Below are positions 292 to 17,600 of a DNA stretch of 64,000 nt, piece after piece; within the stretch, counting starts at the first letter, position 1; every line of letters begins with the position of its first letter. The DNA is taken from contig JAUYBI010000071.1 of NCBI GenBank assembly GCA_030693145.1, positions 10,354-74,353 on the forward strand, given 5' to 3'. A program made the translations under genes and the position numbers. Under the pieces are notes generated by a model. The model searched no databases. It was not told where the DNA came from and saw only the letters and a list, made by a program, of their open reading frames with translations. This DNA is from Candidatus Omnitrophota bacterium. GTDB taxonomy: Bacteria; Omnitrophota; Gorgyraeia; Gygaellales; Profunditerraquicolaceae.

Positions 292-633
292 ATGAAAATT
301 ATTAATCAGAGCAATAGCGCGGTTTTGGCGGATAGGGCAAGGGTGGCGGATACGTTTTATAAGCGGCTGGTGGGGTTACTTAACCGTAACTCTCTGGAAA
401 AAGGAGAAGCCTTGATTTTGAAGCCCTGCTCTAGCATTCATACCCTATTTATGCGTTTTCCAATAGATGTGCTGTTTCTGGACAAAAATGGCAAGGTTAT
501 TGGCTTACTTTCCGTATTTAGGCCTTTTCGCTTTAGCCCGGTTTATTTTGGCGCGTCTTTAGCCATTGAGCTTCTGGCAGGCACCATTCAACTTACTCAA
601 ACAAAACTAGGCAATATCATTAAAATCGAATAA
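292..633 (+). CDS. DUF192-family (COG1430-like) small protein
   Basis: ORF track 292-633. Motifs PCSSIHTLFMRFPIDVLFLD and GASLAIEL resemble the DUF192 fold. Start overlaps the previous stop (TAAATG). Confidence 0.5.
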   Translation: MKIINQSNSAVLADRARVADTFYKRLVGLLNRNSLEKGEALILKPCSSIHTLFMRFPIDVLFLDKNGKVIGLLSVFRPFRFSPVYFGASLAIELLAGTIQLTQTKLGNIIKIE

Positions 634-978: not shown

Positions 979-1182
979 ATGGCTTTTAAAAAGGCCGATA
1001 AAAGCCATTTTGCGCGAAGAAAATTCTCTAATAGAAGAGCGCAATCAATATTTGAATACGTAATACTAACGGCCGTCGTAGTGGCGGCTGTCTTAATTTT
1101 TGCGGAATCAACATATTTTAAAGGCATCAAAGATTCTTGCGAGAAGGCTTTTAATGCCGCAGTTACGGAAATAGTAAAATGA
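979..1182 (+). CDS. Flp/Fap-family prepilin-like protein (paralog 1, 67 aa)
   Basis: ATG 979 preceded by AGGGGG (966-971). N-terminus ...RRAQSIFEYVILTAVVVAAV matches the Flp class III motif (G/A-x-x-x-x-E-Y plus hydrophobic helix). Stop TGA 1180-1182. Confidence 0.6.
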   Translation: MAFKKADKSHFARRKFSNRRAQSIFEYVILTAVVVAAVLIFAESTYFKGIKDSCEKAFNAAVTEIVK

Positions 1183-1322
1183 AAAACAAAGCGCAAAGCA
1201 CCATTGAATACGCATTATTAATTGCTATTGTCGCGGCAGCATTTATCGCGATGAATATGTATATGCAGCGTTCGGTGCAGGCAAATTTTAACATTATCGA
1301 GGAGCAGATAAATACGCCGTAA
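1179..1322 (+). CDS. Flp-family prepilin (paralog 2, 47 aa)
   Basis: ATGA overlap with the previous gene. Protein MKNKAQSTIEYALLIAIVAAAFIAMNMYMQRSVQANFNIIEEQINTP. Not in the ORF track because it is under 60 aa. Confidence 0.6.
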   Translation: MKNKAQSTIEYALLIAIVAAAFIAMNMYMQRSVQANFNIIEEQINTP

Positions 1323-1341
1323 TCAAAAGGAGGAGAGTAAG

Positions 1342-1509
1342 ATGCGCAAGAAAAAGGGCCAGAGTATCTTGGAGTATGTGATTGTATTAACGGTGATAAT
1401 TGTTGCGGTTGCCGTAGCGGCAAAGACCTTTATCGCCCAAGGAGTGAATAAGGGTTTAGAGGATGCAAAGAAGACGATTGAGTACGCCACAGGGCAATTA
1501 CCAAAGTAA
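1342..1509 (+). CDS. Flp-family prepilin (paralog 3, 55 aa)
   Basis: Strong SD AAAGGAGGAGAG (1326-1337). Protein MRKKKGQSILEYVIVLTVIIVAVAVAAKTF... with G-Q-S-x-x-E-Y motif. Confidence 0.65.
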   Translation: MRKKKGQSILEYVIVLTVIIVAVAVAAKTFIAQGVNKGLEDAKKTIEYATGQLPK

Positions 1510-1532
1510 ATTTTTTAGAGGAGGTGAAAAAG

Positions 1533-1889
1533 ATGTTGAACAGAAAGGGCCAGAATACAGCAGAATACGCGATTCTTATCGCGTTAATAATCGCCGCGGC
1601 AGTAGGAATGCAGACTTACGTTAAGAGGGGTTTACAGGGAAGGGTCAAAGAAGCAGTGAACCACACCGGTACAGCGCAAGATGTGGGTGGCGTTAATTTA
1701 ACCTTTACTGGTAATCAATATGAGCCGTATTACGCGGAATCCGATACAAAAGTAAGAAGCGAGAGAACTGCTAATGAAGAACTGGGGTATCGCGGCGCGA
1801 TTACTCGTAGTGACGTAAAAGAGGAAACCAAGGTTGATGCAGGCGGGGTTGAGACAGTCCTTAGCACAACCAGCGCTGAATCTAAATAA
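1533..1889 (+). CDS. Flp-like prepilin with C-terminal extension (118 aa)
   Basis: SD AGAGGAGGTGA then ATG 1533. Protein MLNRKGQNTAEYAILIALIIAAAVGMQTYVKRGLQGR..., same frame as ORF 1524-1889. Confidence 0.65.
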   Translation: MLNRKGQNTAEYAILIALIIAAAVGMQTYVKRGLQGRVKEAVNHTGTAQDVGGVNLTFTGNQYEPYYAESDTKVRSERTANEELGYRGAITRSDVKEETKVDAGGVETVLSTTSAESK

Positions 1890-1903
1890 GGAGGTGAACA
1901 AAG

Positions 1904-2251
1904 ATGTTTAACAAAAAGGGCCAGAGCACATTAGAATATGCATTGATAACCGCAGTGATAATTGCCGGGCTTTTGCTGATGCAGCATTATATGAAGCATG
2001 GTTATGCCGGAAGATTAAAGTCAGCTAGCGATGATATTGGCGAGCAATATGACCCTACTAAACATACCGGAAAATTCAAAACAACCAGTAAGAGTTATAC
2101 AGAACAGACTCTTAAAAACAAAGCTACAACTCAAAAGTATATTGATTTAGGCGGTGCTGAATCCGGCTCTGGCAGAGTGCAGAAAAAAGAGAGTCTCGCC
2201 GATGAAAAGATTGAGGCTTGGGGTAAGGATGAGAACCTGTATAGTAAATAG
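1904..2251 (+). CDS. Flp-like prepilin with C-terminal extension (115 aa)
   Basis: SD AAGGAGGTGA then ATG 1904. Protein MFNKKGQSTLEYALITAVIIAGLLLMQHYMKHG... ORF track 1904-2251. Confidence 0.65.
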   Translation: MFNKKGQSTLEYALITAVIIAGLLLMQHYMKHGYAGRLKSASDDIGEQYDPTKHTGKFKTTSKSYTEQTLKNKATTQKYIDLGGAESGSGRVQKKESLADEKIEAWGKDENLYSK

Positions 2252-2564
2252 AATATCGAGAATAAGCAGGGCGCAAAGCGTGGCTGAATATAGCATTTGT
2301 CTGGCATTAGTTTTAGCCGCGGTTTTGGGCATGCAGCTTTATGTAAAAAGGGGTTTGCAGGGAAGATACCGGGAATTGGTAGATCATGCAGCTAAACAGG
2401 CCGCAAGCCCTAAACAATATGAGCCATACTATGTCCGGGACAAATTTACAGTTAAGCAATTTAAAATAGTTAATGAGGATATGAAATATGAAGGTTTGAC
2501 AACCCGGGATTCTCTTGAAGATAGCACAGAAGTCAAAGGCACAGCCAAAAGGGATGTGCAATAA
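2229..2564 (+). CDS. Flp-like prepilin with C-terminal extension (about 111 aa); start uncertain (ATG 2202 or 2229)
   Basis: Frame of ORF 2154-2564. Protein ...RAQSVAEYSICLALVLAAVLGMQLYVKRGLQGR... Its 5' end overlaps the 3' end of the previous gene by 23-50 nt. Confidence 0.45.
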   Translation: MRTCIVNRISRISRAQSVAEYSICLALVLAAVLGMQLYVKRGLQGRYRELVDHAAKQAASPKQYEPYYVRDKFTVKQFKIVNEDMKYEGLTTRDSLEDSTEVKGTAKRDVQ

Positions 2565-2565
2565 A

Positions 2566-3681
2566 ATGAAAATGCGCAAAATCGGCCAGAGTATAAATGA
2601 ATATGTGTTGGTAATTGTCCTGGTTACTTTAGCCGGGATAGGTATGCAGAGTTATATTAAGCGGGGCATACAGGGTATAGTAAAAACCTCTGCCGATACA
2701 TTGGCCGGAGAGCAAACAGAGGGTAGAATCGAGGTGGATGAAGCAACCAGGGCGTGGCATCCGCTGGCAACAGCATATAAGGATAAATTGATCGCCGGAG
2801 AATTCTTTATTAGAGAGCGGGCAGGCAATAGTTTTTATTATAATGTTTATATCGAGGATCCCGATAATCCAACGAAAATAAAGAAAGACCGCGGCATTGG
2901 CATAGAAGATATTGCTACGGGTAATTTTACCAGTTTGGATATAGACGGTAATCCTCTGCCGGTGGTCTACGATAAAGATGGCAAGGTTTTGACAGGGGTT
3001 CAAGGAGCCGCCTATGTTCAACAAGGAGTAATTGAGTCTGGATTAGTTAAATTTGAATATAAAAATCCCAAAGATCCTAAAAATCCTTTAAAGTTTAAGT
3101 CAGACAAAAAAATCACCGTGGATACCCTTTCAAAGTATAGCGGCCCGAAAAGTTTAGCGTCAGCGGATTGGCATCCGGCAATGACAGCGTATAAAGAAAG
3201 AATGGAAAGAGATAAGATCAAGGGATTTATTCAAACAGAAATAAAAGGCAGCCGGGTTTATTACTACCAGTTTACCACCGACCCTAAAGACAGGACGCTT
3301 ATCGGCGGAGAGAATACCCGCACAGGTGATTTTACCGGATTTGACCCGGATGGGTTTCCTCTATCAACCGTAGACAGTAAACTCACAGTACTTAGGACCT
3401 ACTCCGGTTATGTGAAGGACCCGGAAACAGAAGAAATTGTGGGGGTAACCGGCAGCGATGGCAATATTTATGGGCAACATGAGATAGTAACAATAAGTCG
3501 TGTGCTTCCAAGCATCGGACCGGCAACGGTTGCCTCTCCGATGAGAACCAAGATCATAGATAAGGACACGGCTCAGACTACCGGCGCTTGGGAGGCAACT
3601 TATAAATTAGAGGGTGCAGGCACATTCGGCGCGCTGGAAAAGCAAAAAGGTAAGGCAACACCGCCCGGTGGCACTCCATAA
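2566..3681 (+). CDS. large Flp-like prepilin-domain protein (371 aa) with internally duplicated C-terminal domain
   Basis: ATG 2566 directly after the previous TAA. Protein MKMRKIGQSINEYVLVIVLVTLAGIGMQSYIKRGIQG... Internal repeat WHPLATAYKDK... / WHPAMTAYKER... and GNFTSLDIDGNPLP / GDFTGFDPDGFPL. Confidence 0.6.
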   Translation: MKMRKIGQSINEYVLVIVLVTLAGIGMQSYIKRGIQGIVKTSADTLAGEQTEGRIEVDEATRAWHPLATAYKDKLIAGEFFIRERAGNSFYYNVYIEDPDNPTKIKKDRGIGIEDIATGNFTSLDIDGNPLPVVYDKDGKVLTGVQGAAYVQQGVIESGLVKFEYKNPKDPKNPLKFKSDKKITVDTLSKYSGPKSLASADWHPAMTAYKERMERDKIKGFIQTEIKGSRVYYYQFTTDPKDRTLIGGENTRTGDFTGFDPDGFPLSTVDSKLTVLRTYSGYVKDPETEEIVGVTGSDGNIYGQHEIVTISRVLPSIGPATVASPMRTKIIDKDTAQTTGAWEATYKLEGAGTFGALEKQKGKATPPGGTP

Positions 3682-3691
3682 TAAAATAATT

Positions 3692-4078
3692 ATGATAATA
3701 CAAATTAAAAAATATGGCTCAGCTAAGGCAAGCGCGCAATCGACATTGGAATACGCCATGGTAGTTGCCTGCGTAGTGGCAGCGCTTTTAGGGATGCAGT
3801 TTTACCTCAGGCGGGGAGTGCAGGGTAAACTCAGGCAGGCAGGAGATGAGTTAGGCGAACAATATACACCGTTGAATGTGGAGTCAAAAATTATCACAGA
3901 AACAACTTCCACCACAGGGATAATACAATCTTTAGTTCCCTTGGACAAGGACGGCAAACCTTTGCTTGATCAATATGGTTTGCCTGTCTACGGAATGAAG
4001 ACAGAGGCAAGTATTGATGAGACTACCGAGAAAAGCGGAAAAGAAACATTAGGGGAATTTGAAGATGGTTTATTTTAA
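3692..4078 (+). CDS. Flp-like prepilin with C-terminal extension (128 aa)
   Basis: ATG 3692 in the frame of ORF 3614-4078. Protein MIIQIKKYGSAKASAQSTLEYAMVVACVVAALLGMQFYLRRGVQG... Confidence 0.55.
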   Translation: MIIQIKKYGSAKASAQSTLEYAMVVACVVAALLGMQFYLRRGVQGKLRQAGDELGEQYTPLNVESKIITETTSTTGIIQSLVPLDKDGKPLLDQYGLPVYGMKTEASIDETTEKSGKETLGEFEDGLF

Positions 4079-5084
4079 TAAAAAAGCGCAGACCCTGACG
4101 GAATTGGCAACCTTTGGTTCGATTCTTTTATTGGTTTTGTCTTTTTTGATCAGTTACGGAGTGCGCTATAATTACCAGCAGGATATGCAGATGGCTGCTT
4201 TTCGCCGGGCGTTATCTGAAGCACATGCTTCCGGCCGGCCGGATGCCTCAGCTTCGGTGGTGATGGTTGAAGACAAGCATATTCCTGATCCGCGCGATAT
4301 GTTTGGCGCGGGTAGTGTTGTTTCCATGCAAGCCGGCGCAGAGGTGGCCTGGGGTAATACTATGCAGGATCAATATGACATTAGCAATGAGTCACTTTTG
4401 CCCAGAGTAAAATACGTGTTTAACGATAAAGACGTGGCGAAGAGAGTAGAGCGCGAATACACGACTGCGGGCTATGGTTTTATTGCCAATGGCACTGAAT
4501 TTTACGCGATACTTCCCGGTAATAATGAACCAGAGTTGATAAGCTGGTCAAATGTGAAATGTTACCAGCCTACCCCGGATTCTCCTAAGCAGGCAATGGT
4601 ATTGCTGCCGGATAATGAGAAAGAGGTAATTACTGAGGTTTATTTGAAGCCGGCGGGCGCGGGTTCGGCGAAGAAGTTTATAAAATATCAGATTATTGGA
4701 GTGGAGACTATTCCGCCGGTTCCGCCGGATGGTTCTGACGGGAAGCCTATTGACTGGATAAGTTTATTAAGACCGGATTTTGGCGGGATTAATCCTAATT
4801 ATATGCAATTAAATAGTGATGTGGACAGGGACGGTATCCCGGATGTAACGCAGGATAATGTCCAGGGGGTATTGTTGGACTCAGAGCAGAAGATCAAGCG
4901 CAGAGGTACGCTGACCATAGAAGAAACTCCCGGGACAAGCGCAAGTACCGCCGCATACAGTTTTAAGGATAAAGCCGGAAATCCCACGACAATTATCCAT
5001 AAAATTAGGAGCAGCTCGGGGGTGGAAAATATAAGCTCTCCTTTTGAAAGGAATAGAGTATCGGAATGGAAAATTACCAAGTAA
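4065..5084 (+). CDS. TadE/TadG-like pseudopilin (340 aa)
   Basis: ATG 4065 after AGGGGA. N-terminus MVYFNKKAQTLTELATFGSILLLVLSFLISYGV...AAFRRAL resembles the TadE-like domain (hydrophobic segment then a Q..AA.R motif). ORF track 4059-5084. Confidence 0.55.
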   Translation: MVYFNKKAQTLTELATFGSILLLVLSFLISYGVRYNYQQDMQMAAFRRALSEAHASGRPDASASVVMVEDKHIPDPRDMFGAGSVVSMQAGAEVAWGNTMQDQYDISNESLLPRVKYVFNDKDVAKRVEREYTTAGYGFIANGTEFYAILPGNNEPELISWSNVKCYQPTPDSPKQAMVLLPDNEKEVITEVYLKPAGAGSAKKFIKYQIIGVETIPPVPPDGSDGKPIDWISLLRPDFGGINPNYMQLNSDVDRDGIPDVTQDNVQGVLLDSEQKIKRRGTLTIEETPGTSASTAAYSFKDKAGNPTTIIHKIRSSSGVENISSPFERNRVSEWKITK

Positions 5085-5317
5085 AAGCCCAGGTCGCGCT
5101 TGAATTTACCACTGCTTTCATTTGCCTGATCCTTTTTTTGGTGGCGACCACGCAAATATTTGTCTGGTTCGGGAATAATATTGTGCAACGGCATAAACAG
5201 TATGAAAGTACGCGCACGACCGTAGCGGCTGATGGCACCACCGCGCCTCCGAAGATAGATTTTTATACGCCTAAGAATTTAAACATATTCGGGAAACCGG
5301 AAGAGCTGCCGAAATAA
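5066..5317 (+). CDS. TadE-like pseudopilin, small (83 aa)
   Basis: Protein MENYQVKAQVALEFTTAFICLILFLVATTQIFVWFGNN... has the TadE-like N-terminal pattern. ORF track 5066-5317. Confidence 0.5.
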   Translation: MENYQVKAQVALEFTTAFICLILFLVATTQIFVWFGNNIVQRHKQYESTRTTVAADGTTAPPKIDFYTPKNLNIFGKPEELPK

Positions 5318-5322
5318 ATAAA

Positions 5323-5529
5323 ATGAGAAAAAAAGGGATGAGCGTGGTAGAATATAGTTTACTGATTGCGATTGTAATCGCCGGGCTTTTGGCAATGCAA
5401 GTTTATGTTAAACGGGCTGTAAGCGGCCGCTGGAAGGAAGCCGGAGATGTGTTTGGTTTTGGCAGGCAAACGTCCAGGACCCTTCTAAAACCGCAGCCAC
5501 CAGGCGGCGGCGGATTACCGGGAATGTAA
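5323..5529 (+). CDS. Flp-family prepilin (paralog, 68 aa)
   Basis: Protein MRKKGMSVVEYSLLIAIVIAGLLAMQVYVKRAVSGR... ORF track 5323-5529. Confidence 0.65.
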   Translation: MRKKGMSVVEYSLLIAIVIAGLLAMQVYVKRAVSGRWKEAGDVFGFGRQTSRTLLKPQPPGGGGLPGM

Positions 5530-5531
5530 AA

Positions 5532-6377
5532 ATGAGACTACTAATTATTTTGCTTATTTTTGGATCAATCGCTGGTTTGGCGTATGAATTGATTCCTCTA
5601 CTTTTAGGCCGCTATTCCCAGCTGCAGGGCAAGCGTATGGAAAATGCCTCCAAGGAATTGCATAAGATGTTTATTTATACTGAAAAGCGCCGTTTACTAT
5701 CTGTGTTTACGATTACGCCTTTGGTGCTGGGCACGCTGGGATTTATGATCTTAAATAATCCATTTGGTGTTTTAGTGGGCGTAGGCCTGGGTTTGTTATT
5801 GCCCCGGATATGGATTAAAAATATGGGCCGAAAAAGGCTGAATAATTTCGCCAAGCAGTTGGTAGATGCGCTGATGCTTCTTTCCAGCTCGCTTAAGGCG
5901 GGGATGAGTTTACCCCAGGCATTTGAGGTGCTTACCGAAGAAATGCCCGCGCCAATTAGCGATGAGTTTGCCCTGGTGATCAAAGAAAATAAAATGGGCG
6001 TAAGCTTAGAAGATTGCCTGGCGCATCTTAAGCAAAGAATACCTTTAGATGATTTGGAATTATTGACTACCGCTATCAGCATCTCCCGGGAAACCGGAGG
6101 TGACTTGACTGAAATTTTCGGGAATTTAGTGCATACCATTAGGGAAAAAAGAAAATTAGATGACCGTGTAAGGATACTCACTGTGCAGGGGCGGCTGCAG
6201 GGGGCGATTATGGGCCTTTTGCCGATTGCCTTTGGGGTTTTTATGTATTTCACTAACCCGGGCAATTTTGACATCATGCTTAAAGATAAAACCGGCCAGA
6301 TGCTGCTTGCCTGGGCGGTGATTTCCGAAATAATCGGGATAATTTTAATCCGGAAATTAAGCCGGGTGGAGATATAA
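5532..6377 (+). CDS. tadB: Tad pilus assembly inner-membrane platform protein, T2SS-F domain (TadB-like)
   Basis: Protein with an N-terminal TM, the T2SSF-type region LLSSSLKAGMSLPQAFEVLTEEMPAPISDEF...RETGGDLTEIF, and C-terminal TMs. ORF track 5532-6377. Confidence 0.7.
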   Translation: MRLLIILLIFGSIAGLAYELIPLLLGRYSQLQGKRMENASKELHKMFIYTEKRRLLSVFTITPLVLGTLGFMILNNPFGVLVGVGLGLLLPRIWIKNMGRKRLNNFAKQLVDALMLLSSSLKAGMSLPQAFEVLTEEMPAPISDEFALVIKENKMGVSLEDCLAHLKQRIPLDDLELLTTAISISRETGGDLTEIFGNLVHTIREKRKLDDRVRILTVQGRLQGAIMGLLPIAFGVFMYFTNPGNFDIMLKDKTGQMLLAWAVISEIIGIILIRKLSRVEI

Positions 6378-6379
6378 AT

Positions 6380-7261
6380 ATGGAACTCGCGCTGATTATT
6401 TTTTTGTTGTTTATCAGTATTGGATTTGCGGCCTATCATATTTCTAACCGTAAGCTGGTGGAAGAGGTGCATCTGCCTTCTGAGATTACCGGCCCGTCGG
6501 CCTCCGGGCTAAAAGCATTTAATTTTAAAAATATTTTAAGCGGGCCGGTCAGTTTTATCGAGCGCCTGTTCGGCAAATCTATGCTCTCTTTCACTTCGAG
6601 CGATTTGCATAAACGCTTAGCTTCCTCAAATAATAAAATGAGCGCCAGCCAGTTTATGATATTAAAATTGTTTATGGCCGGGGCAGTGCCGCTGGGTGCT
6701 TTTATTGCTGTTCACGCAGAACTCCTGATACTGATTATTTGCGCCGGCGTTGGTTTTATTTCACCGGACATCTGGCTGAATAACTTGATTAAGAAAAGGC
6801 GCGCCCTGATTGTGAAAGACCTGCCTTTGGTAATTGACCTTTTGAATATCTGCGTAGGGGCAGGCCTGGATTTTATGGTGGCGGTTAACCGGGTAATTCA
6901 GGAATTCAGGCCCTGCGCGCTGATTGAGGAAATGAAGATAATGGCCCACGAAATACAAATGGGCAGTGCCCGGCGTGATGCGTTAAAGAATATGTCCAAT
7001 CGCATCAATAATCCTGAGATCAGCTCGTTTGTGAGGACGCTTTTACAGGCAGACAGGATCGGCTCGCCTATTAGCGAGGCATTAAAGATGCAGTCAGAGG
7101 AAATCCGCCTGCGCTGGTTCCAAAGAGGCGAAGAGATGGCCTTAAAAGCTCCGATTAAGCTGTTATTTCCCCTGTTGGTATTTATCCTTCCAGTAGTTTT
7201 AATCATTGTTGCCGGCCCTATTTTGCTACAGTTTACCCAGGGCGGAATGATGAAATTCTAA
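6380..7261 (+). CDS. tadC: Tad pilus assembly inner-membrane platform protein, T2SS-F domain (TadC-like)
   Basis: Second T2SSF-domain protein immediately downstream. Region LPLVIDLLNICVGAGLDFMVAVNRV...ADRIGSPISEAL with terminal TMs. ORF track 6380-7261. Confidence 0.7.
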   Translation: MELALIIFLLFISIGFAAYHISNRKLVEEVHLPSEITGPSASGLKAFNFKNILSGPVSFIERLFGKSMLSFTSSDLHKRLASSNNKMSASQFMILKLFMAGAVPLGAFIAVHAELLILIICAGVGFISPDIWLNNLIKKRRALIVKDLPLVIDLLNICVGAGLDFMVAVNRVIQEFRPCALIEEMKIMAHEIQMGSARRDALKNMSNRINNPEISSFVRTLLQADRIGSPISEALKMQSEEIRLRWFQRGEEMALKAPIKLLFPLLVFILPVVLIIVAGPILLQFTQGGMMKF

Positions 7262-7321
7262 GCTAAATAGACTTTTTTAAATACACCTTTAAATTTTACT
7301 TGACTTTTTTAAATATCTACG

Positions 7322-7372
7322 AATACGACCCTGTTTCCCAGCCAATCGGGAAATAGGGTCGTATTTTTGTCG
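7322..7372 (+). terminator. intrinsic-terminator-like hairpin (repeat family D) after tadC
   Basis: aatacgaccctgtttccc-agccaatc-gggaaatagggtcgtatt forms an 18-bp stem, followed by TTTTTG. Half-copies occur at 811-830 and 8021-8047. Confidence 0.5.
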
Positions 7373-7456: not shown

Positions 7457-7969
7457 ATGAACGCAAAAGAGATTTCGGCAGAAGTAGTGGCAATGAAGAT
7501 TTTGTTGGTGAGGGGCAGAAAGGTGATGTTGGATAGGGATTTGGCAGAGATGTATGGTGTAAAGACTAAAGTTCTTTTGCAAAGTGTAAAGCGAAATGCA
7601 AAAAGGTTCCCGGAAGATTTTATGTATCAGCTTATAAAACAAGAGGTTGCCATCTTGAGGTCACAAAATGTGACCTCAAGATGGGGTGGTAGAAGATATT
7701 TACCGTATGTATTTACTGAGCAAGGCGTAGCAATGCTTTCTACAGTTTTGAATTCTGAACGCGCAATCCAGGTTAATATCGCTATTATGCGGGCATTCGT
7801 AAAGCTGCGCGAAGTCTTGTTAACGCATAAGGACTTAGCGCAGAAACTTGAGGAATTGGAACGGAAATACCAATTGCATGAGACAGATATCCAGGCAATA
7901 TTCGAGGCGATTAAGAGATTAATTGAACCGCCGGATGAGCCTCCCAAGCCACGGTTTGGGATGAATTGA
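7457..7969 (+). CDS. ORF6N-domain protein (KilA-N/ORF6N superfamily, phage/mobile-element-associated regulator-like)
   Basis: Protein MLDRDLAEMYGVKTKVLLQSVKRNAKRFPEDFMYQL...SRWGGRRYLPYVFTEQGVAMLSTVLNSERAIQVNIAIMRAFVKLR matches the ORF6N signature. SD AGGAGAG upstream. Confidence 0.65.
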   Translation: MNAKEISAEVVAMKILLVRGRKVMLDRDLAEMYGVKTKVLLQSVKRNAKRFPEDFMYQLIKQEVAILRSQNVTSRWGGRRYLPYVFTEQGVAMLSTVLNSERAIQVNIAIMRAFVKLREVLLTHKDLAQKLEELERKYQLHETDIQAIFEAIKRLIEPPDEPPKPRFGMN

Positions 7970-8042
7970 GATTGCCTACGGCCCCATTTTCCTATCAGGC
8001 TTGAAACAGTTTCTTAGCCAATCGGGAAATAGGGTCGTATTT

Positions 8043-8105
8043 TTTTGTCCAGTCTGTGAAATAAATTCTAATTATTGTCCATTCTAATTTGATATTTGTC
8101 CAATC
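8043..8105. repeat. three spaced copies of TTGTCCA(G/T/A)TC
   Basis: ttgtccagtctg ... ttgtccattctaa ... ttgtccaatcaga, read directly. Same motif as the 640-690 array. Confidence 0.4.
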
Positions 8106-8170: not shown

Positions 8171-8188
8171 GCAGGGCGACCGAAGAAT

Positions 8189-8216
8189 AGTAGGGGAGGT
8201 TTAAACCTCCCCTACT
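8189..8216. repeat. family A palindrome AGTAGGGGAGGTTTAAACCTCCCCTACT
   Basis: Perfect 28-nt palindrome. Stem bases differ from the 744-771 copy by compensatory changes (GTGG/CCAC to GGAG/CTCC). Confidence 0.55.
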
Positions 8217-8225
8217 GAAAATAAT

Positions 8226-8273
8226 GGGACCGTTTCTATTTTTCGAAAAGTATCGAAAAATAGAAACGGTCCC
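8226..8273. repeat. family B hairpin element, perfect 21-bp inverted repeat (gggaccgtttctatttttcga / tcgaaaaatagaaacggtccc)
   Basis: Read directly. Related copies at 697-720 (half), 9566-9618 and 24954-25003. Confidence 0.55.
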
Positions 8274-8358
8274 TGATTTGCCCTGATTCGTTATTTTAAG
8301 GGTTTTTTGGGGGTAGGCTACAGAAAGAAAGCGCTACCAAAATTAGTGCAATTTCTAC

Positions 8359-8388
8359 TTGACAGCGTCTATCCGGGGTGTTATATTT
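8359..8388 (+). promoter_or_regulatory. candidate sigma70-type promoter (TTGACA - 16/18 nt - TTATAT/TATATT) upstream of the giant gene
   Basis: ttgacagcgtctatccggggtgttatatt read directly, about 280 nt upstream of ATG 8669. A weak hairpin plus T-run at 8505-8529 lies in the leader. Confidence 0.35.
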
Positions 8389-8668
8389 GAGTGTAAATAG
8401 AAAAGGTGCAAAAGGTAAACTTAGAGTAATCTAAGGACACAAAGCCACGGATCCTAAAATCAAGAAATAGTGTCAAGGACAGCCGGGTTGCCAGTACCGA
8501 CGAAAGTTGGAGCTGACAACTCATTTTTTATTTAAGAACTTAATAAAAAATTTTAAAAACGTTTTAGTAATCTGTAACCTTATGCAAAGAAGCTTCATTA
8601 AAAAAATGAAAAGTCTTGGGGTAAGGGGAAGTATTTATTTTTTATTTAATACTACAGGTAAGTAAAAA

Positions 8669-11600
8669 ATGAATATAAATCAGCAGCAGACAGAAAACAG
8701 TATTAAGCAACCCAAAGAAGAATTCAAGTCAAGTTTTAAGACTTGGATTCGCGCGGTTGCTTTTATTGTTATTGCGGTATTCCTACCAGAACAGGCAGCC
8801 CAGGCAATGGGCTATGACCCCACCACAATCTGGAATCACTCTTATTTCGTTAACCAGGGCAAAAACGGATTTTTAACTTATCTTGTAGCGGATAATGTCC
8901 AACGCTCCTTGAATTCACTTGCCTATAAACAATTAAATCAGGTTCAACTGGATAAAGATTTAGTAATTGAAACAATGTCCATTCATAACCCTGATGCCAT
9001 TGGAAGTGGACAGGGTGCTCCTGTGTCATCGCAAGGAACTTCCCCTGTGTCATTGCGAGGAGCGGAGCGACGAAGCAATCTTTATGATAAAATCAGCAAT
9101 ATCCTGCAAAGTGTCAGTGCGGGAATTCTTAATTTTGCGGTCAACGGCCTGAATAAAATCTCCTCACCTGGCGCTTATAGCCAGGGATTAATAGATTTCT
9201 TAAGTAGGGCAGGTTTAAACCTGCCCTACTCTGACTCAAACCAAGGAACCGCCTCCAGCCAAAAACCACCGCTCTATATTACCGGTTCAGTGGCAAAACA
9301 AATTAACCTGTGGCTTAAGGATCCCAAGACGCAGGTTGATAACAACTGTGGCATCAACGCGCTGAATGCATTATTTGTCCAATCTGGTATTAAAGTAACT
9401 CGTGAGGAATTGGCAACCCGGGCGATTATGGTTGATTTCCTCTCAGGCAATTTGAGGGAATTAAAAGGTGAACTCGCCTTATCCCTTTTTGCCCTGAATA
9501 AAACCGCCATCTCCTTTGGCCTTAAGACCGCTTTAGTCAAAATTCCCGCTTCGGCATTGAATCAAGGGGACGGTTCTGTTTTTCTAACACCAAACTCAGG
9601 AAAAACAGAACCGTCCCCTTTATTTCCATTCATTACCTATCTTTTATCCGAGCACTTTGTCTTAATAACCCGCATAACTGAAGACAAGGTTTATTACCAA
9701 GAAGACAAAGAAGAAGCCAATATGTCCAAAGAGATCTTCCTCAAAGGCTTTACCGGCAATTGCTTGATTCTTGCCTCATCCCTTTCCTCTCAAAATAGTA
9801 GGGGAGGTTTAAACCTCCCCTACAGTTCAGCGGAGGATTTAGTGGAGAATGGGATTGTCCCTCTTTCCGACCAAGAGGCATTACAAATCAGCGGAAAGGA
9901 AAACAATGATAGCCGCCTGCGTTCTTTAAAAACCGCGGTGGGTTTGGCAGTGGGATTGGTTACCAAGAATCCGGCGCTTGGGTCTACGTTAGCGAATACC
10001 AATTGGACGAGCACAGTATCATCTATTCGATCTACTGTGTCTAATGCCCGCAACATCTACAATTCCGCAGTGAATGTCCAGAACACAGTTAAACGAGCAA
10101 CCGGCTTATCCATAGGAAGCTTCACTTCTCCCTTGAGCAATATTAATATCCAGAGCATTAAATCCACTGCCGGCATAGCCACTGCCGTGCTTACCCGTAA
10201 TCCCCGGGCAGGAATGGCAGTAACTAATAGTAATTGGACCAAGACAATATCTAACGGCCTCTCCGGAATAAAAAATACTCTTTCTGAAAAAGCAACCTGG
10301 GCAATAGACCAGACCACCTTTAGTTCTAAACTGCGTAATGAAAAATACTGGAGCGCGAATAAAATAGCGGATGCTAAAGTGTTCCATTATCAATTTTATG
10401 ATGCGCAAAAGCAAACAGCAATGTTTGGAGGGAATGTCTATACCAAACAGCAATGGGATGCTAAATGGAATGAGAAGGCATCGTTTTTCAGTTCATCCAC
10501 TTTAACCCGTGGACAGGAGAATGACCAAGCGTTCAATGCCCTGGTAATCGCCAATCCCAATGGTGTGATTAGCGGGACAATTACCGGCGTCTTAGGTTAC
10601 GCGGGAACAGCCATAAAGTATTCGCGTTCTTTACCAGCAATTTCTCAATATCTACCAACCGGAGTTAAGGGCTTGATTAGCAACCCAACCGCGAGTGTTG
10701 GACTTAGCCGCGCGGGAGGGATAGCTAATTCTATCGGCTCAAAGGGTTATAATTTTGCCAAATGGACACTACAGATGGAGCGGGGCGGTGGAAGCTTAGC
10801 TAAAAATATTTGGCTGACATCATTAAAATATACCACAATAACCGGGCCTATCTATATTGGTATTCCTACGCAGGGCATCTCTTCTGTTTTATACGCTAAT
10901 GGTTATAACAAAGCCGGAGATATAGTATCTGGCCCAAACAGATTTGCAGAAAGGACAATAATTTCTGGCCATGATGTAGTGGGCGGTATCTTAGGTTGGT
11001 CGAATAGAAACATATTCCGCACCAGTATTGGAGATAATCTCTGGAATGAGCAGTATGGCAAACTCGGAAAACTGACTACTGCTTGGAATAAATTTGATAA
11101 AAATAATGAAATTTATTGGAGAGGAACTGTGGGAGACAAGAATTATGAATACCTTGTTAAACCCGTTACTCAAACCGCAGCTATAGCAATAGGAACTTTA
11201 GGAGCAGGCGCATTATACGGAGGTTCTGCTACGGTTCTTTCTCTAAGTTCAAATGCCTTGAGATGGCTTCCTATAGCTGTACCCGCTAATATAGGGCTAA
11301 ATACTGCATCTAAATATTCGTCAACAGGACAAGCTCCAACAATTCATGAAGGAGCCTCTTGGGGCATAGAAGGTGTAGGCGATGCATTTGTATTTGGCAC
11401 ATTACAGAGAGCATATACAGGAAGCAAAATAGCAGTTAATGCTTATCGGCTGGATAGAGTAATCTCTAAGCAGAAGTATTATACACCTATATACACGAGC
11501 TTCACAAATGGAAGAATAGTAACCGCCATAGATTTAGGTAAATTCGGATATAAAGACATCGCTAAGCTCTATCTGTTTAAAGCCGGCCAGTGGCTGCCAA

Positions 11601-14600: not shown

Positions 14601-17600
14601 TATTTGGAGATGAAATTCATCAGATTGCACAATCGCCACATTTAATAATGGGGATAAAAGGAGAACCGATAAAAGCTGATTTTTTAAATAGGATTGGAAC
14701 AGAGTTTGATGGGTTTTCCGGATGGTTAAAGAAAAAAGCAGCGCTCAGTGGCGAAGTCAAGGATTATAAAGATTTTGGTAATTGGTTGATAAAAGAGCAT
14801 TTCATTAGAAAAGTTGGCAATCAAGGATATTTAGAGCAAAAACTTGTAAAAGAATTTATAGAATATAAAGAGAACAAAATTGACATAAATAAATTCCGCG
14901 ATATTGAGAATAAAGAATATAAAGATTATCGGCTAATGCTTAATGCTTTTGCAGATGCCTGGGGAATGGTTAAAGAACAACAAGGAGGATATGGTTGGTC
15001 AGGAGATAAACCTTTGGAATTAGAATTCAGAGGCAAGCCAGTGCCTATTCATGAAGGTAAGCTAGCTGCACAGATGTATTGGAGTTTAGAAAACATTGTT
15101 ATTGCGCGTTGGATTGCTGCAGCACGAATGGAAGGATTTAAGGGGAGTGTAGATAAAATTATGTTCAATGAGAAGGGGGAATCTCGTATAAGTGCAAGCC
15201 CCGAGTCCCTAAGAGTTACACCTATGAGTATAGTAAAAGATTTTAATTATAAATCTTTCCTTTCTGCTACTCCCGAGTGGGCAGGGCCTATTTCTCGGTT
15301 TATGGGCGTAGGGGTAGAAAGAAGGAATACGCTTATGAGTGAAATAAAGAATTACTTAAAGAGAGAAACGCCGAAAGATCAATTTCAGTATCAATTTAAA
15401 CTAGAACATGTAGGATATTTTAAAGATTTTAAGAAAGGATTAGAACAATTTAGCTATGACGGTCCAATTGTTATTAAGCCCGCCTTTACATACCACAAAG
15501 ATAAAATAGCAGAGATGGTTGTTGGTTATGCAGAACGTACAAATAAAGTCCTGTTTGTTATGAAGGACGGTGGTTTTGAAGTATACCGTAATGGTATTCG
15601 TGACAGTATGATAGTTGACAAAGAAACAGTGAAAAAAAAATTATCCGAAGGAGAAAATATAGCGGTTTTATTCGACCGCCCTAATTTAGTAGGGTATAAC
15701 TTAGATTTTGGGAATAAAGGGGACATCCCTGCAAGTCGGCTTAGTAAAGATCCTAAATATATTACTGTCATTGATTCGGATACTACTGCTACTGAGTTTA
15801 GGCATACATTGGGAAGAAACCGTGGAAAATTCACAGAAAATGTTTGGGTTCTTGATAGGGAAGGGAAGATAAATGATGTAGATAAATTGATAAAACAACT
15901 TGAGAAAAATGAAAATAAGGCATTGGTCGATGCTTTTTATCAAGCATTTAATAATGTTGCTCATCAAGGGATGATTTCCCGGTTTGACTTGCTAAGGAAA
16001 TTCTCATTGAATGATTTAGATTACAATATAGTAAAAGATTTTCAAACAGAATTTCAAAGTAGGAACAAGATGGATGACGATATCAGCCCGCGTAGTGATA
16101 TGGATTTGGCTACCGCTATCGATCGTTCAGCAAAGAAAGAAGCCAAAGATTTTGTAGAAGTAGCTCAAAAGTTTAAAGGTAAGCTCAATCCTGCGCAAAA
16201 AAATTATGTAGAAAACTGGATAAAAGAAACCGAAAAGATAAGTAAACAAGGAATAGAATTTAAGGGTAACGATGTGAATAGAGACGGAGAGAGGTTAGCC
16301 AGAGAGATTGGCTGGGCAAGATTGGATTTTAGCGAAGCTACAAAAGTTTTTAGCGAAACTTATAAACGTAAGGAACTCGCAGAAAAAAGAATATCCCTTA
16401 TGTCTTCTTTAGCTATTCCGCGAGAAATTAATTGGGTAGGAATAGCTAAAGAAGGAATGACGAAAGATAATTTCCAAAAAGGCCTTACAGCAGAGATAGA
16501 GAAAACAGGCCTTTCACATAAATACTCTGAAGGTTATAGCAAAGATTTAGTTTCTTCAATGCCCCAAGACGTATTTAAAGGCAGGTTCACATATTTAAAG
16601 AGTCCAGCCATTACTGCTGGAGGAATTGGGTTCTTAAATATACTTACACAGCTTTCTTCTTCAAATGAGGATGAGATAGAAAAAATTAAAAATATACTCC
16701 TAAGTCTATTTGATTTTAACAAGGCACAGGAGTTTGCTCTTAATTTAAGAGGAATTTCTACTGATTCTGCACTTTATCCATTTTATTTGGGATTCTTGGT
16801 TTCTTCGTTAAACATTCATAGTAGAGAAGAATTAAGTAGTGTCATAAAGACGAGAGAAGCTTATCTTAAAAATGTATTCAATGGGCTCCCAGATAATGGA
16901 ATAAAAAAATATTTAAGTGACCGAAATTTGATACATTTTGGAATTCCAACTTTTGACGGTTATTCTTTTATCAATAATTTCCGCTATTCGCAAAATATTG
17001 TTCGGAACAGAGGGTTAGAAGAAGCAACAGTTATAAGAAATTTTGCGTTTCCCAAAGCAGCTATTCAACAAAATAAAGGGTTTCATGAAGACACAAGTTT
17101 TGAAATTGCAAAACTTCTTCATAAATATGATATTACTTTACCCCAACTTTACGGTGTCGCTAAGTCAAGTATGGCCTTAGTGGTGCAAAGAAAGGTTACT
17201 CAGCTCCCCAAGTTAAAAACAGTTAGCAGGATACGCGAAGGTTTAGATTTTATGAATTGGTTAAAACAAGAAGTTGTTCCTGATACAGAACTTCATTCTT
17301 GGCTGTCTAAAAAAACAGAAATACTTAGTAAGGCGAATAATAAATTAGAAGATAAATTGAATAAGGTGTATGGACGAAGCGGCGCAGCTAGGTATTTATT
17401 AAGAGGTATAGATAATTATCGCATTAGGAAAGAAATTTATAACTATAATAAATTAACCACATCTACCGATTTGGAAAAATTAGAAGAACTAATTGGAATT
17501 GATTCTAAGGCCTCCGTTAGTATTTTTAATCCCAAATTGTCTTTTAAGGAAATTGAAGATTCCGTAGCAACCATAAAAGGCTTATCCTTGTTGGGGAATA

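Follow-up and report, generated by a model that had tools for sequence, protein, structure and literature searches.

The Omnitrophota are abundant, uncultivated and ultra-small bacteria in which predation or parasitism is suspected, and what their genomes reveal about contact with a host comes mainly from the Tad-like locus beside the giant genes. A conserved locus labelled "T2SS-like", after the type II secretion system (T2SS), and carrying many small genes with class III signal peptides has been described at Omnitrophota giant genes (West-Roberts, 2023), and Tad complexes have been reported in the same phylum (Seymour et al., 2023), so that the locus type itself is already known; a literature search found no dissection of its pilin block. 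Here, this block is analyzed in 64,000 nucleotides of DNA from a Candidatus Omnitrophota bacterium (GenBank assembly GCA_030693145.1, contig JAUYBI010000071.1, positions 10,354 to 74,353 of the forward strand), hereafter the window, in which positions 979-5529 of the + strand hold 11 prepilin-like genes (g1 to g11) arranged head to tail in a tight same-strand array. Probably, this one operon holds the full set of pilins and pseudopilins for the Tad-type (type IVc-like) filament machine that stands ahead of the giant genes in Omnitrophota.

Tad pilins are described as having no globular beta domain (PMC11067988). In the Tad-like Kil pilus of Myxococcus xanthus, one major Flp pilin (KilP) is accompanied by 14 minor pilins, and the tips carry a variable large pilin (PMC12075869). 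The roles of KilP as the major subunit, of KilK and KilO as Flp-like adapters and of KilL, KilM and KilN as TadE/F/G-like tip complexes have been shown genetically, and recognition of prey has been proposed for the largest tip pilin, through its variable domain (PMC12075869). What is new in the Omnitrophota array is an unusually large fixed set of pilins in a Tad-type system, with several domains of no known fold.

Composition of the array and its Tad-type context

The genes of the array are separated by gaps of -23 to +23 nt and are as follows (arrows mark predicted cleavage sites; lengths in amino acids, aa).

g1, 979..1182 (+): short Flp-like prepilin, 67 aa, with a long basic leader; predicted cleavage NRRA↓QSIFEY; mature 46 aa
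g2, 1179..1322 (+): Flp-like prepilin, 47 aa, the shortest and most conserved; predicted cleavage MKNKA↓QSTIEY; mature 42 aa
g3, 1342..1509 (+): short Flp-like prepilin, 55 aa; predicted cleavage KKKG↓QSILEY; mature 49 aa
g4, 1533..1889 (+): medium pilin, 118 aa; an Flp-like N-terminus and MQxYxKRGxQG precede a C-terminal domain of ~70 aa with QYEPYY; mature 112 aa
g5, 1904..2251 (+): medium pilin, 115 aa; C-terminal domain starting DDIGEQYDP; mature 109 aa
g6, 2229..2564 (+): medium pilin, 111 aa with the ATG at 2229 as start; predicted cleavage ISRA↓QSVAEY; mature 96 aa
g7, 2566..3681 (+): large pilin, 371 aa, in which an Flp-like N-terminus leads into two tandem modules of ~135 aa and a conserved GAWEATYKLEGAGTFG tail; mature 364 aa
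g8, 3692..4078 (+): medium pilin, 128 aa; predicted cleavage KASA↓QSTLEY; mature 113 aa
g9, 4065..5084 (+): TadE-like pseudopilin, 339 aa; predicted cleavage NKKA↓QTLTEL; mature 331 aa
g10, 5066..5317 (+): small TadE/TadF-like pseudopilin, 83 aa; predicted cleavage QVKA↓QVALEF; mature 75 aa
g11, 5323..5529 (+): short Flp-like prepilin, 68 aa, with a Gly/Pro-rich tail; predicted cleavage RKKG↓MSVVEY; mature 63 aa

The original prediction, made from the sequence of the window, had placed an array of ten prepilin paralogs at these positions; the location stands, and the count rises to 11. All 11 products begin, as had been stated, with a short Lys/Arg-rich leader and continue after the cleavage motif, (G/A)↓(Q/M)(S/N/T/V)xxE(Y/L/F), into ~20 uncharged hydrophobic residues, and the exact form (G/A)-Q-(S/T)-x-x-E-Y, which had been claimed for every member, is found in 7 of 11, the exceptions being g4 (GQNTAEY), g9 (AQTLTEL), g10 (AQVALEF) and g11 (GMSVVEY). 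A scan of the + strand of the 64-kb window for the strict motif followed by a hydrophobic stretch gave no match outside the array. Large C-terminal domains are carried by six genes (g4-g9), the five listed earlier together with g9, which had been omitted. With g6 starting at the ATG at 2229, which is preceded by a good ribosome-binding site (GGGGTAAGG), the predicted overlap with g5 is correct and measures 23 nt; an alternative ATG upstream, at 2202, would extend this overlap to 50 nt.

At the predicted cleavage site, g1 and g2 have Ala at -1. All 11 products have Gln or Met, and never Phe, at +1; Glu at +5 is invariant and Tyr at +6 nearly so, and the ~20-residue hydrophobic helix follows. 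The Gln at the predicted +1 position is like that of archaeal class III signals, and the Glu-Tyr pair at +5/+6 is like that of Flp pilins. In size (47-68 aa), in the (G/A)↓xxxxEY motif and in the helix, g1, g2, g3 and g11 fit Flp/Fap pilins, and these four consist of little more than the helix, as is expected of Flp pilins; g4-g8, with 96-364 mature residues, exceed it.

Matches to curated families point the same way at low scores. The highest Flp_Fap (PF04964) score in the array is that of g2 (20.8 bits, E 3.3e-4; gathering threshold 32.2 bits), which also has the highest PF04021 score in the window (18.8 bits; threshold 23.7), and the sole N_methyl (PF07963) match is that of g3 (14.6 bits; cut-off 21.2). 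Among 36 N-termini from the window and its relatives, sub-threshold Pfam matches (E<=0.1) were obtained to Class_IIIsignal in 13, to DUF4244 in 12 and to Flp_Fap in eight, and single matches to TadF, TadE, N_methyl and archaeal flagellin, so that Class_IIIsignal, DUF4244 and Flp_Fap are the only families to recur for the short and medium genes. The assignment of g1-g8 and g11 as putative Flp/class III-type prepilins is supported by context and motif, below all curated thresholds.

For g9 and g10, no match to the TadE or TadF models (PF07811 and PF16964) was found at E<=1 with the window proteins. The g9 family comprises 1108 representatives at E<=1e-3; TadE, matched by 9 of 103 representatives (best E 5.3e-5), is the only recurrent Pfam family there, and in hhalign the leader, cleavage site and helix start of the Flp-like set align with the g9 family at 72% probability. 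Both genes bear a prepilin motif and occupy the TadE/TadF-type position beside the platform genes, the order g9-g10-(g11)-TadB-TadC being kept in the window, in the related loci L002-L007 and in metagenome loci; g11 is the final pilin gene ahead of TadB in all loci. On these grounds g9 and g10 are read as TadE/TadF-like pseudopilins.

The machine context extends to the upstream side of the array in related loci, where genes for a peptidyl-prolyl isomerase (PPIase), RcpC, a secretin, a TadZ(ParA)-TadA(T2SSE) fusion and a DUF192 protein are found. Related loci also encode a TadG-like protein of ~750 aa, the N-terminus of which scores 20-21 bits against the Pfam Tad family (PF13400; cut-off 22.3). 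The earlier proposal of Flp-type prepilins belonging to a Tad machine is supported by the adjacent TadB and TadC genes, by RcpC, secretin and TadZ-TadA genes in relatives and by the recurrent Pfam matches.

Orthology, allelic variation and C-terminal domains

In L002, the g7 ortholog of which is 62% identical to that of the window, the gene-caller finds the same eleven genes in identical order and with near-identical sizes. Each window gene has its best L002 match at the same position, with 60-91% identity, the other paralogs being 20-55% identical, and across the relatives compared the orthologs of array genes reach 60-96% identity. With DUF192 as an anchor, 80 metagenome loci were collected; the array follows DUF192 in 11 of the 14 that have at least 7 kb downstream, with 7-13 prepilin genes each, and typing with hidden Markov models (HMMs) gives the recurring order g1?-g2-g3-g4-g5/8-g6-...-g9-g10-(TadG-like)-g11-TadB-TadC. 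The ratio of nonsynonymous to synonymous substitution rates (dN/dS) is 0.04-0.42, which indicates purifying selection on every gene; g2, with 96% and 91% identity to its orthologs, has a ratio of 0.07-0.09. Because full-length orthologs exist in relatives for every gene and dN/dS lies in this range, the C-terminal extensions are not frame errors, an origin that had been named as a possible refutation.

Variation between genomes is present within this conserved frame. Compared with L006 (6937-11447), most genes are 90-99% identical, and g1, g3 and g9 only 69-73%. The g1 product is 69% identical to its L006 counterpart and 80% to that of L002, and the L006 g1 is nearer to L002 than to the window. 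Along the operon, synonymous divergence (dS) from L006 is 0.02 in g8, 0.12 in g10, 0.60 in g9 and 0.97 in g3. Such uneven dS within one operon, together with the affinity of L006 g1 to L002, points to a recombination mosaic between lineages inside the pilin block. In the g9 alleles, the first 55 and last 70 residues are near-identical and the differences cluster at residues ~100-250. In L003, which has 13 genes, g3 is duplicated and there are two extra genes (g3-like and medium copies); the equivalents of g4-g6 are divergent and g7 is still 89% identical. The existing variation is thus allelic, lies between genomes and is found in g1, g3 and the centre of g9.

Signs of switching were sought within the array. 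Tandem Repeats Finder reported no significant tandem or simple repeats there, no inverted repeats bracketing any array gene and no invertible segments were found, and the repeats present are shared N-terminal coding segments only. Promoter-like sites in the array number 23, compared with 18.9 +/- 4.4 expected, which is no excess. Neither the switch elements nor the separate promoters of a phase or antigenic variation cassette are seen, and orthology is one to one. Because of this one-to-one orthology, the conserved order of families, the dN/dS values and the lack of repeats and switch elements, the array seems to supply the set parts of a single filament with its tip, and not a choice of interchangeable variants.

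Beyond the helix, the motif MQxYxKRGxQG is common to g4-g8 and g11. The medium pilins form two paralog pairs, g4/g6 with QYEPYY and g5/g8 with D(D/E)IGEQYxP, and a profile search with them retrieved more than 741 proteins, of which the named ones are all from Omnitrophota; to some, JGI gives the name "UPF0333 family", and for one homolog a precomputed match to PF04021 exists. In g7, the internal duplication noted earlier is confirmed: residues ~60-195 and ~198-340 are 30% identical over 148 columns (E 9e-13), with a Smith-Waterman score 17 standard deviations above shuffles (z = 17). Of the g7 homologs, 21 were found, and all of those with a source name are from Omnitrophota. The gene in the g7 position of L004 encodes 153 aa, keeps the N-terminus and the GAW...GTF tail and is missing both modules, and the g7 duplication is therefore a clade-specific insertion. 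For g9, a copy with 100% identity is annotated on a 75-kb contig of an NCBI Omnitrophota metagenome-assembled genome, and a profile search of genome contigs gave three loci only. The homologs of g7, g9 and the medium pilins are uncharacterized, and all those with a source name belong to Candidatus Omnitrophota.

AlphaFold2 (AF2) predicts for g9 a pilin-like "lollipop", in which an N-terminal helix (residues 3-55) is followed by an all-beta domain of ~280 aa (pLDDT 83, pTM 0.77), and for each g7 module a helix with an antiparallel sheet (pLDDT 70-90 in the modules, 59 overall). The g9 model found no fold match in the PDB or BFVD (best E 0.057 and 0.0037, respectively; TM-score <=0.14). A weak resemblance of the g7 model to the beta-hairpin shell of teneurin/Rhs proteins, seen in a Foldseek search of the PDB, was rejected (E >=1.4e-3, TM-score <=0.14). 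Structure prediction thus gives a confident model for g9 and a moderate one for g7, and links neither to a known fold. The C-terminal domains of the pilins show no similarity to any part of the giant protein encoded downstream.

Neighbouring genes and regulation

The remaining features of the window that bear on the locus are as follows; a tetratricopeptide repeat gene also lies upstream of the array, together with the DUF192 gene.

292..633 (+): DUF192 protein, 113 aa (PF02643, E 4.8e-16)
5532..6377 (+): TadB-like platform protein with one T2SSF domain, 281 aa (PF00482, E 7.5e-18)
6380..7261 (+): TadC-like platform protein with one T2SSF domain, 293 aa (PF00482, E 1.3e-14)
7457-7969 (+): DNA-binding protein of ORF6N/Rha-like type (PF10543, E 1e-34), encoded after TadC and ahead of the giant gene
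8666-64000 (+), first ATG at 8669: giant open reading frame (ORF), stop-free until the window ends, encoding at least 18,444 aa

A distance of 1.4 kb separates TadC from the start of the giant ORF. The giant product has an N-terminal hydrophobic segment and Pfam matches to a C39 peptidase-like domain near the N-terminus, an M28 peptidase, an ICMT-like methyltransferase and a GNAT domain, and a crude hydropathy scan finds 38 hydrophobic 19-mers, all within residues 4911-16683. Between TadC and the giant gene, the spot that holds the ORF6N gene in the window is occupied in L002 by two ORF6N genes and a ParE/PhD toxin-antitoxin pair, and because of this difference it looks like a variable insertion point.

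On the upstream side, the window was extended by one 4-kb Logan contig. The DUF192 gene lies between TadZ-TadA and the array, TadZ-TadA directly preceding it in 18 of the 28 metagenome loci with at least 3 kb upstream; no link between DUF192 and Tad systems was found in the literature. In some relatives, glycosylation-type genes stand beside DUF192, namely those for GT2 and PMT_2-like mannosyltransferases and a radical SAM/SPASM enzyme, and L002 encodes upstream a fusion of ~1,040 aa with PIG-L deacetylase and GH3 domains (positions of the glycosylation or PIG-L/GH3 genes: L003 575-6104; L007 2870-6369; L001 1-3141; L002 4129-7221). The upstream gene of equal size in L001, which belongs to the window's own lineage and has no Pfam record, is probably the ortholog of this fusion. 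A function of these genes in pilin glycosylation or in cell-wall attack is possible. A conserved protein of ~520-740 aa, with weak matches to helix-turn-helix-like Pfam families only, follows DUF192 in most distant loci (for example L005 5292-6851, L022 11206-12879, L027 10740-12836, and more than 40 other loci); its gene is usually on the + strand and is reversed in L026 and L031. It is absent in the window's clade, where a 345-nt gap with repeats resembling repetitive extragenic palindromic (REP) sequences takes its place.

Just upstream of the giant ORF, at 8405-8496 (+), lies a cyclic di-GMP (c-di-GMP) riboswitch of the c-di-GMP-I-GGC class (RF03167; 61.1 bits, gathering score 59), preceded by a strong promoter-like site, TTGACA-17-TATATT, at 8359-8387. 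L007 has the same arrangement (15712-15803). In five more distant loci, a classical c-di-GMP-I aptamer (RF01051) is found 37-51 nt upstream of the first prepilin gene (L027 12941-13066, L017 8228-8353, L044 2616-2749, L031 13182-13304, L026 6321-6460); in the window, no riboswitch was detected upstream of g1 at E<=1. Expression of the array is probably linked to c-di-GMP, as well as to the giant protein encoded next to it. Two candidate promoters of g1 were rejected: a sigma-70-like site at 878-905, picked by eye, matches the -10 box at 3 of 6 positions, and the best scanned site, at 952-980, overlaps the g1 start codon. In each of the intergenic gaps that surround the operon, namely those preceding g1 and following TadC and the ORF6N gene, families of palindromic REP-like repeats occur (690-830, 7319-7365, 8009-8044 and 8186-8284); examples are GGGTTTAAACCCACCCTACTG hairpins at 743-803 and 8186-8222, GGGACCGTTTCT.TTTTTC at 694-724 and 8219-8273, and AATACGACCCT... 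at 808-827, 7319-7365 and 8009-8044.

Model of the filament, alternatives and known systems

From established knowledge of type IV filaments, we infer the membrane insertion, processing, export and assembly of the subunits; the division of labour among the pilins, including the choice of the major subunit, the placing of others at the tip and a function in adhesion or predation, is proposed from size, conservation and family, and by analogy with the Kil pilus. All eleven products would enter the inner membrane through the N-terminal helix, and a prepilin peptidase encoded elsewhere would cut the short basic leader after the Gly or Ala at -1. The TadZ-TadA ATPase and the TadB/TadC platform would extract the subunits, which would polymerize via their N-terminal helices and leave through the RcpC/RcpA secretin conduit. 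The shaft would be built of one or two of the very short helical members (g2 and/or g3), g2 being the candidate major subunit and g3 a second candidate, or an adapter; g1 and g11 may be adapters. Assembly would be primed and the filament capped by g9/g10, the TadG-like protein of ~750 aa and the globular g4-g8, and the cap would display the new beta-rich domains, the variable centre of g9 being most likely the contact surface for prey or substrate. The earlier suggestion of a minor-pilin or tip role for the extended members agrees with the evidence, as it does with the Kil precedent (PMC12075869). Because the C-terminal domains match nothing in the PDB or BFVD, their roles as adhesins or at the tip are argued from analogy only.

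Several observations weigh against a complete Tad-type pilin operon. In Pfam and NCBIfam searches with all 11 products, no curated HMM (Flp_Fap, TadE, Class_IIIsignal, N_methyl) reached its gathering score for any window protein, and a sequence search of the PDB with a profile of the 36 N-termini matched no solved pilin. The C-terminal domains have no Pfam match, and no match was found in the PDB for the g7 and g9 models or in BFVD for that of g9. The window begins past the upstream half of the machine, and TadZ-TadA, the secretin and RcpC are seen in syntenic relatives only. The major subunit is not singled out by sequence, g2 being the most conserved gene yet having a weak ribosome-binding site, and g3-g5 having strong ones (AAGGAGG in g3). 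Moreover, the search for a prepilin peptidase, which covered ~10 kb around the DUF192 gene in each of ~85 loci, was negative both in a screen for the GxGD(V/A)K motif with transmembrane segments and among unannotated ORFs with multiple transmembrane segments. A conserved ORF of ~305 aa upstream of RcpC, considered as a peptidase, proved to be the PPIase. Unlinked prepilin peptidase genes are common, and the enzyme, if present, must be encoded outside the locus. Myxococcus shows that such an arrangement is possible (PMC12075869).

The main rival explanation, which we consider unlikely, is that the array specifies a short periplasmic pseudopilus (endopilus) of a T2SS-like machine, in which a piston and its tip push cargo through the secretin and no long adhesive pilus is formed; the giant protein, its fragments or glycoside hydrolases would be the cargo. 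The giant ORF begins within 1.4 kb of TadC, the locus includes GH3/PIG-L and other carbohydrate genes, and the many distinct pseudopilin-like genes, with medium pilins of 95-115 mature residues, are nearer to GspG-K than to the classical Flp/TadE/TadF set, all of which would suit such a piston. However, the machine parts are of Tad type (the TadZ(ParA)-TadA fusion, RcpC and the split single-domain TadB and TadC), the cleavage motif is that of Flp and class III proteins and not G↓FTLIE, and the very short helical members have the size of Flp subunits typical of Tad shafts. The giant protein is moreover unlikely to be a T2SS passenger because it has dozens of predicted membrane segments. At the other extreme, the products might be small secreted or membrane-anchored proteins that borrow a class III-like signal-anchor for export or surface display and form no filament. 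The lack of a pilin HMM above threshold, the failure to find the peptidase in the locus and the JGI naming of homologs as "UPF0333 family" only are what this explanation would predict; it is nevertheless highly improbable, given that in dozens of loci the array is consistently flanked by the Tad ATPase/secretin genes on one side and by TadB/TadC on the other, that Glu at +5, the near-invariant Tyr at +6 and the hydrophobic helix form the signature required for type IV filament assembly, and that TadE matches occur within the g9 family.

The original prediction had taken so large an array to suggest pilus variation. Under such a scheme, a cell would express a single paralog at any time, as its major subunit or adhesin, and phase or antigenic variation among the paralogs would alter pilus specificity or evade recognition. 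Many paralogs do share a common N-terminus, gene number differs among relatives (13 in L003), allelic mosaics, very uneven dS and a hypervariable g9 centre are present, and alternative tip sets are used by Myxococcus (PMC12075869). Against this, all genes are packed tightly in one operon under purifying selection, promoter-like sites stand at the chance level, and neither simple-sequence tracts nor bracketing inverted repeats exist; the search for phase-variable repeats or promoters that had been advised was thus negative or at chance. The paralogs, at 20-45% identity, are also far more distant from one another than are orthologs at the same position (60-96%), which fits non-redundant roles. 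Variation by switching is thus very unlikely, and the paralogs are ancient, distinct, one-to-one orthologous and fixed in order.

With a Tad-type pilin operon as the preferred reading, the parts list gained consists of eleven orthologous families in a fixed order, with candidates for shaft, adapter and tip, two domains without a known fold, a hypervariable region in g9 and links to c-di-GMP riboswitches. It extends the idea, derived from Kil, that Tad pili are specialized through their minor-pilin tips (PMC12075869), and metaproteomics, cryo-electron tomography of enrichment cultures and the structural modelling of complexes gain concrete targets from it. A more far-reaching proposal, which must be regarded as rather unlikely, is that an obligatory Tad-derived filament of about a dozen pilins, unlike any characterized, operates here: its Flp-type subunits would have reacquired globular domains, now of novel fold, its tip of g7, g9 and the TadG-like protein would dock or deploy the giant membrane protein onto prey, and c-di-GMP riboswitches would switch the whole module. 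If the tip does dock the giant protein on prey, the locus would represent a new class of contact-dependent predation apparatus that goes beyond an adhesive pilus.

Among known systems, the Tad/Flp (type IVc) pilus, as in the Aggregatibacter tad locus and Caulobacter PilA/CpaJ-L, shares with the Omnitrophota locus the G/A↓xxxxEY motif and hydrophobic helix, very short helical subunits (here g1-g3 and g11), TadE-like proteins (g9 and g10) and, in relatives, a large TadG-like protein, as well as the split TadB/TadC, TadZ, a CpaF-type ATPase, RcpC and the RcpA secretin. It differs in having ~3-4 pilin genes compared with 11 and, by the account cited above, in the globular C-terminal domains that five Flp-type members (g4-g8) carry in Omnitrophota. 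Further differences are the Gln at +1, the fusion of TadZ to TadA, the DUF192 and PPIase genes built into the Omnitrophota locus, in which no tadV/cpaA was found, and the Pfam Flp_Fap and TadE thresholds, which are unreached.

The Kil pilus is likewise a Tad-like machine of a predator, a lifestyle that is suspected here, with a major Flp pilin, many minor pilins, short Flp-like adapters and a large minor pilin with an exposed variable domain, for which g9 would be the counterpart. Its four alternative, partly redundant tip clusters lie at separate loci, whereas the Omnitrophota set is one operon with one copy per family, and its partner is a needleless type III secretion system in place of a giant multi-domain protein.

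With GspG-K of the T2SS and FimU-PilVWXE of type IVa pili, the array has in common medium subunits made of a helix and a small globular domain and, in the proposed model, a fixed complement of co-transcribed subunits without redundancy, one major and the others minor, with roles in priming and at the tip; the locus has been labelled T2SS-like (West-Roberts, 2023). The motif is, however, not G↓F(T/S)LIE with N-methyl-Phe, TadB and TadC are split in contrast to the two-domain GspF/PilC, and TadZ and RcpC are present. Archaeal class III or Epd-type pilins (PF04021, UPF0333) resemble the Omnitrophota proteins in the short basic leader, in Gln at +1 and Glu at +5, in occurring as arrays of small paralogs, in PF04021 being the most frequent sub-threshold match (13/36) and in the UPF0333 name that JGI gives to homologs. 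In contrast to these archaeal pilins, the Omnitrophota proteins score below the PF04021 cut-off, have Tyr at +6 as in Flp, belong to a bacterial machine of diderm type with a secretin and RcpC, and have named homologs that all come from Candidatus Omnitrophota, a bacterial phylum.

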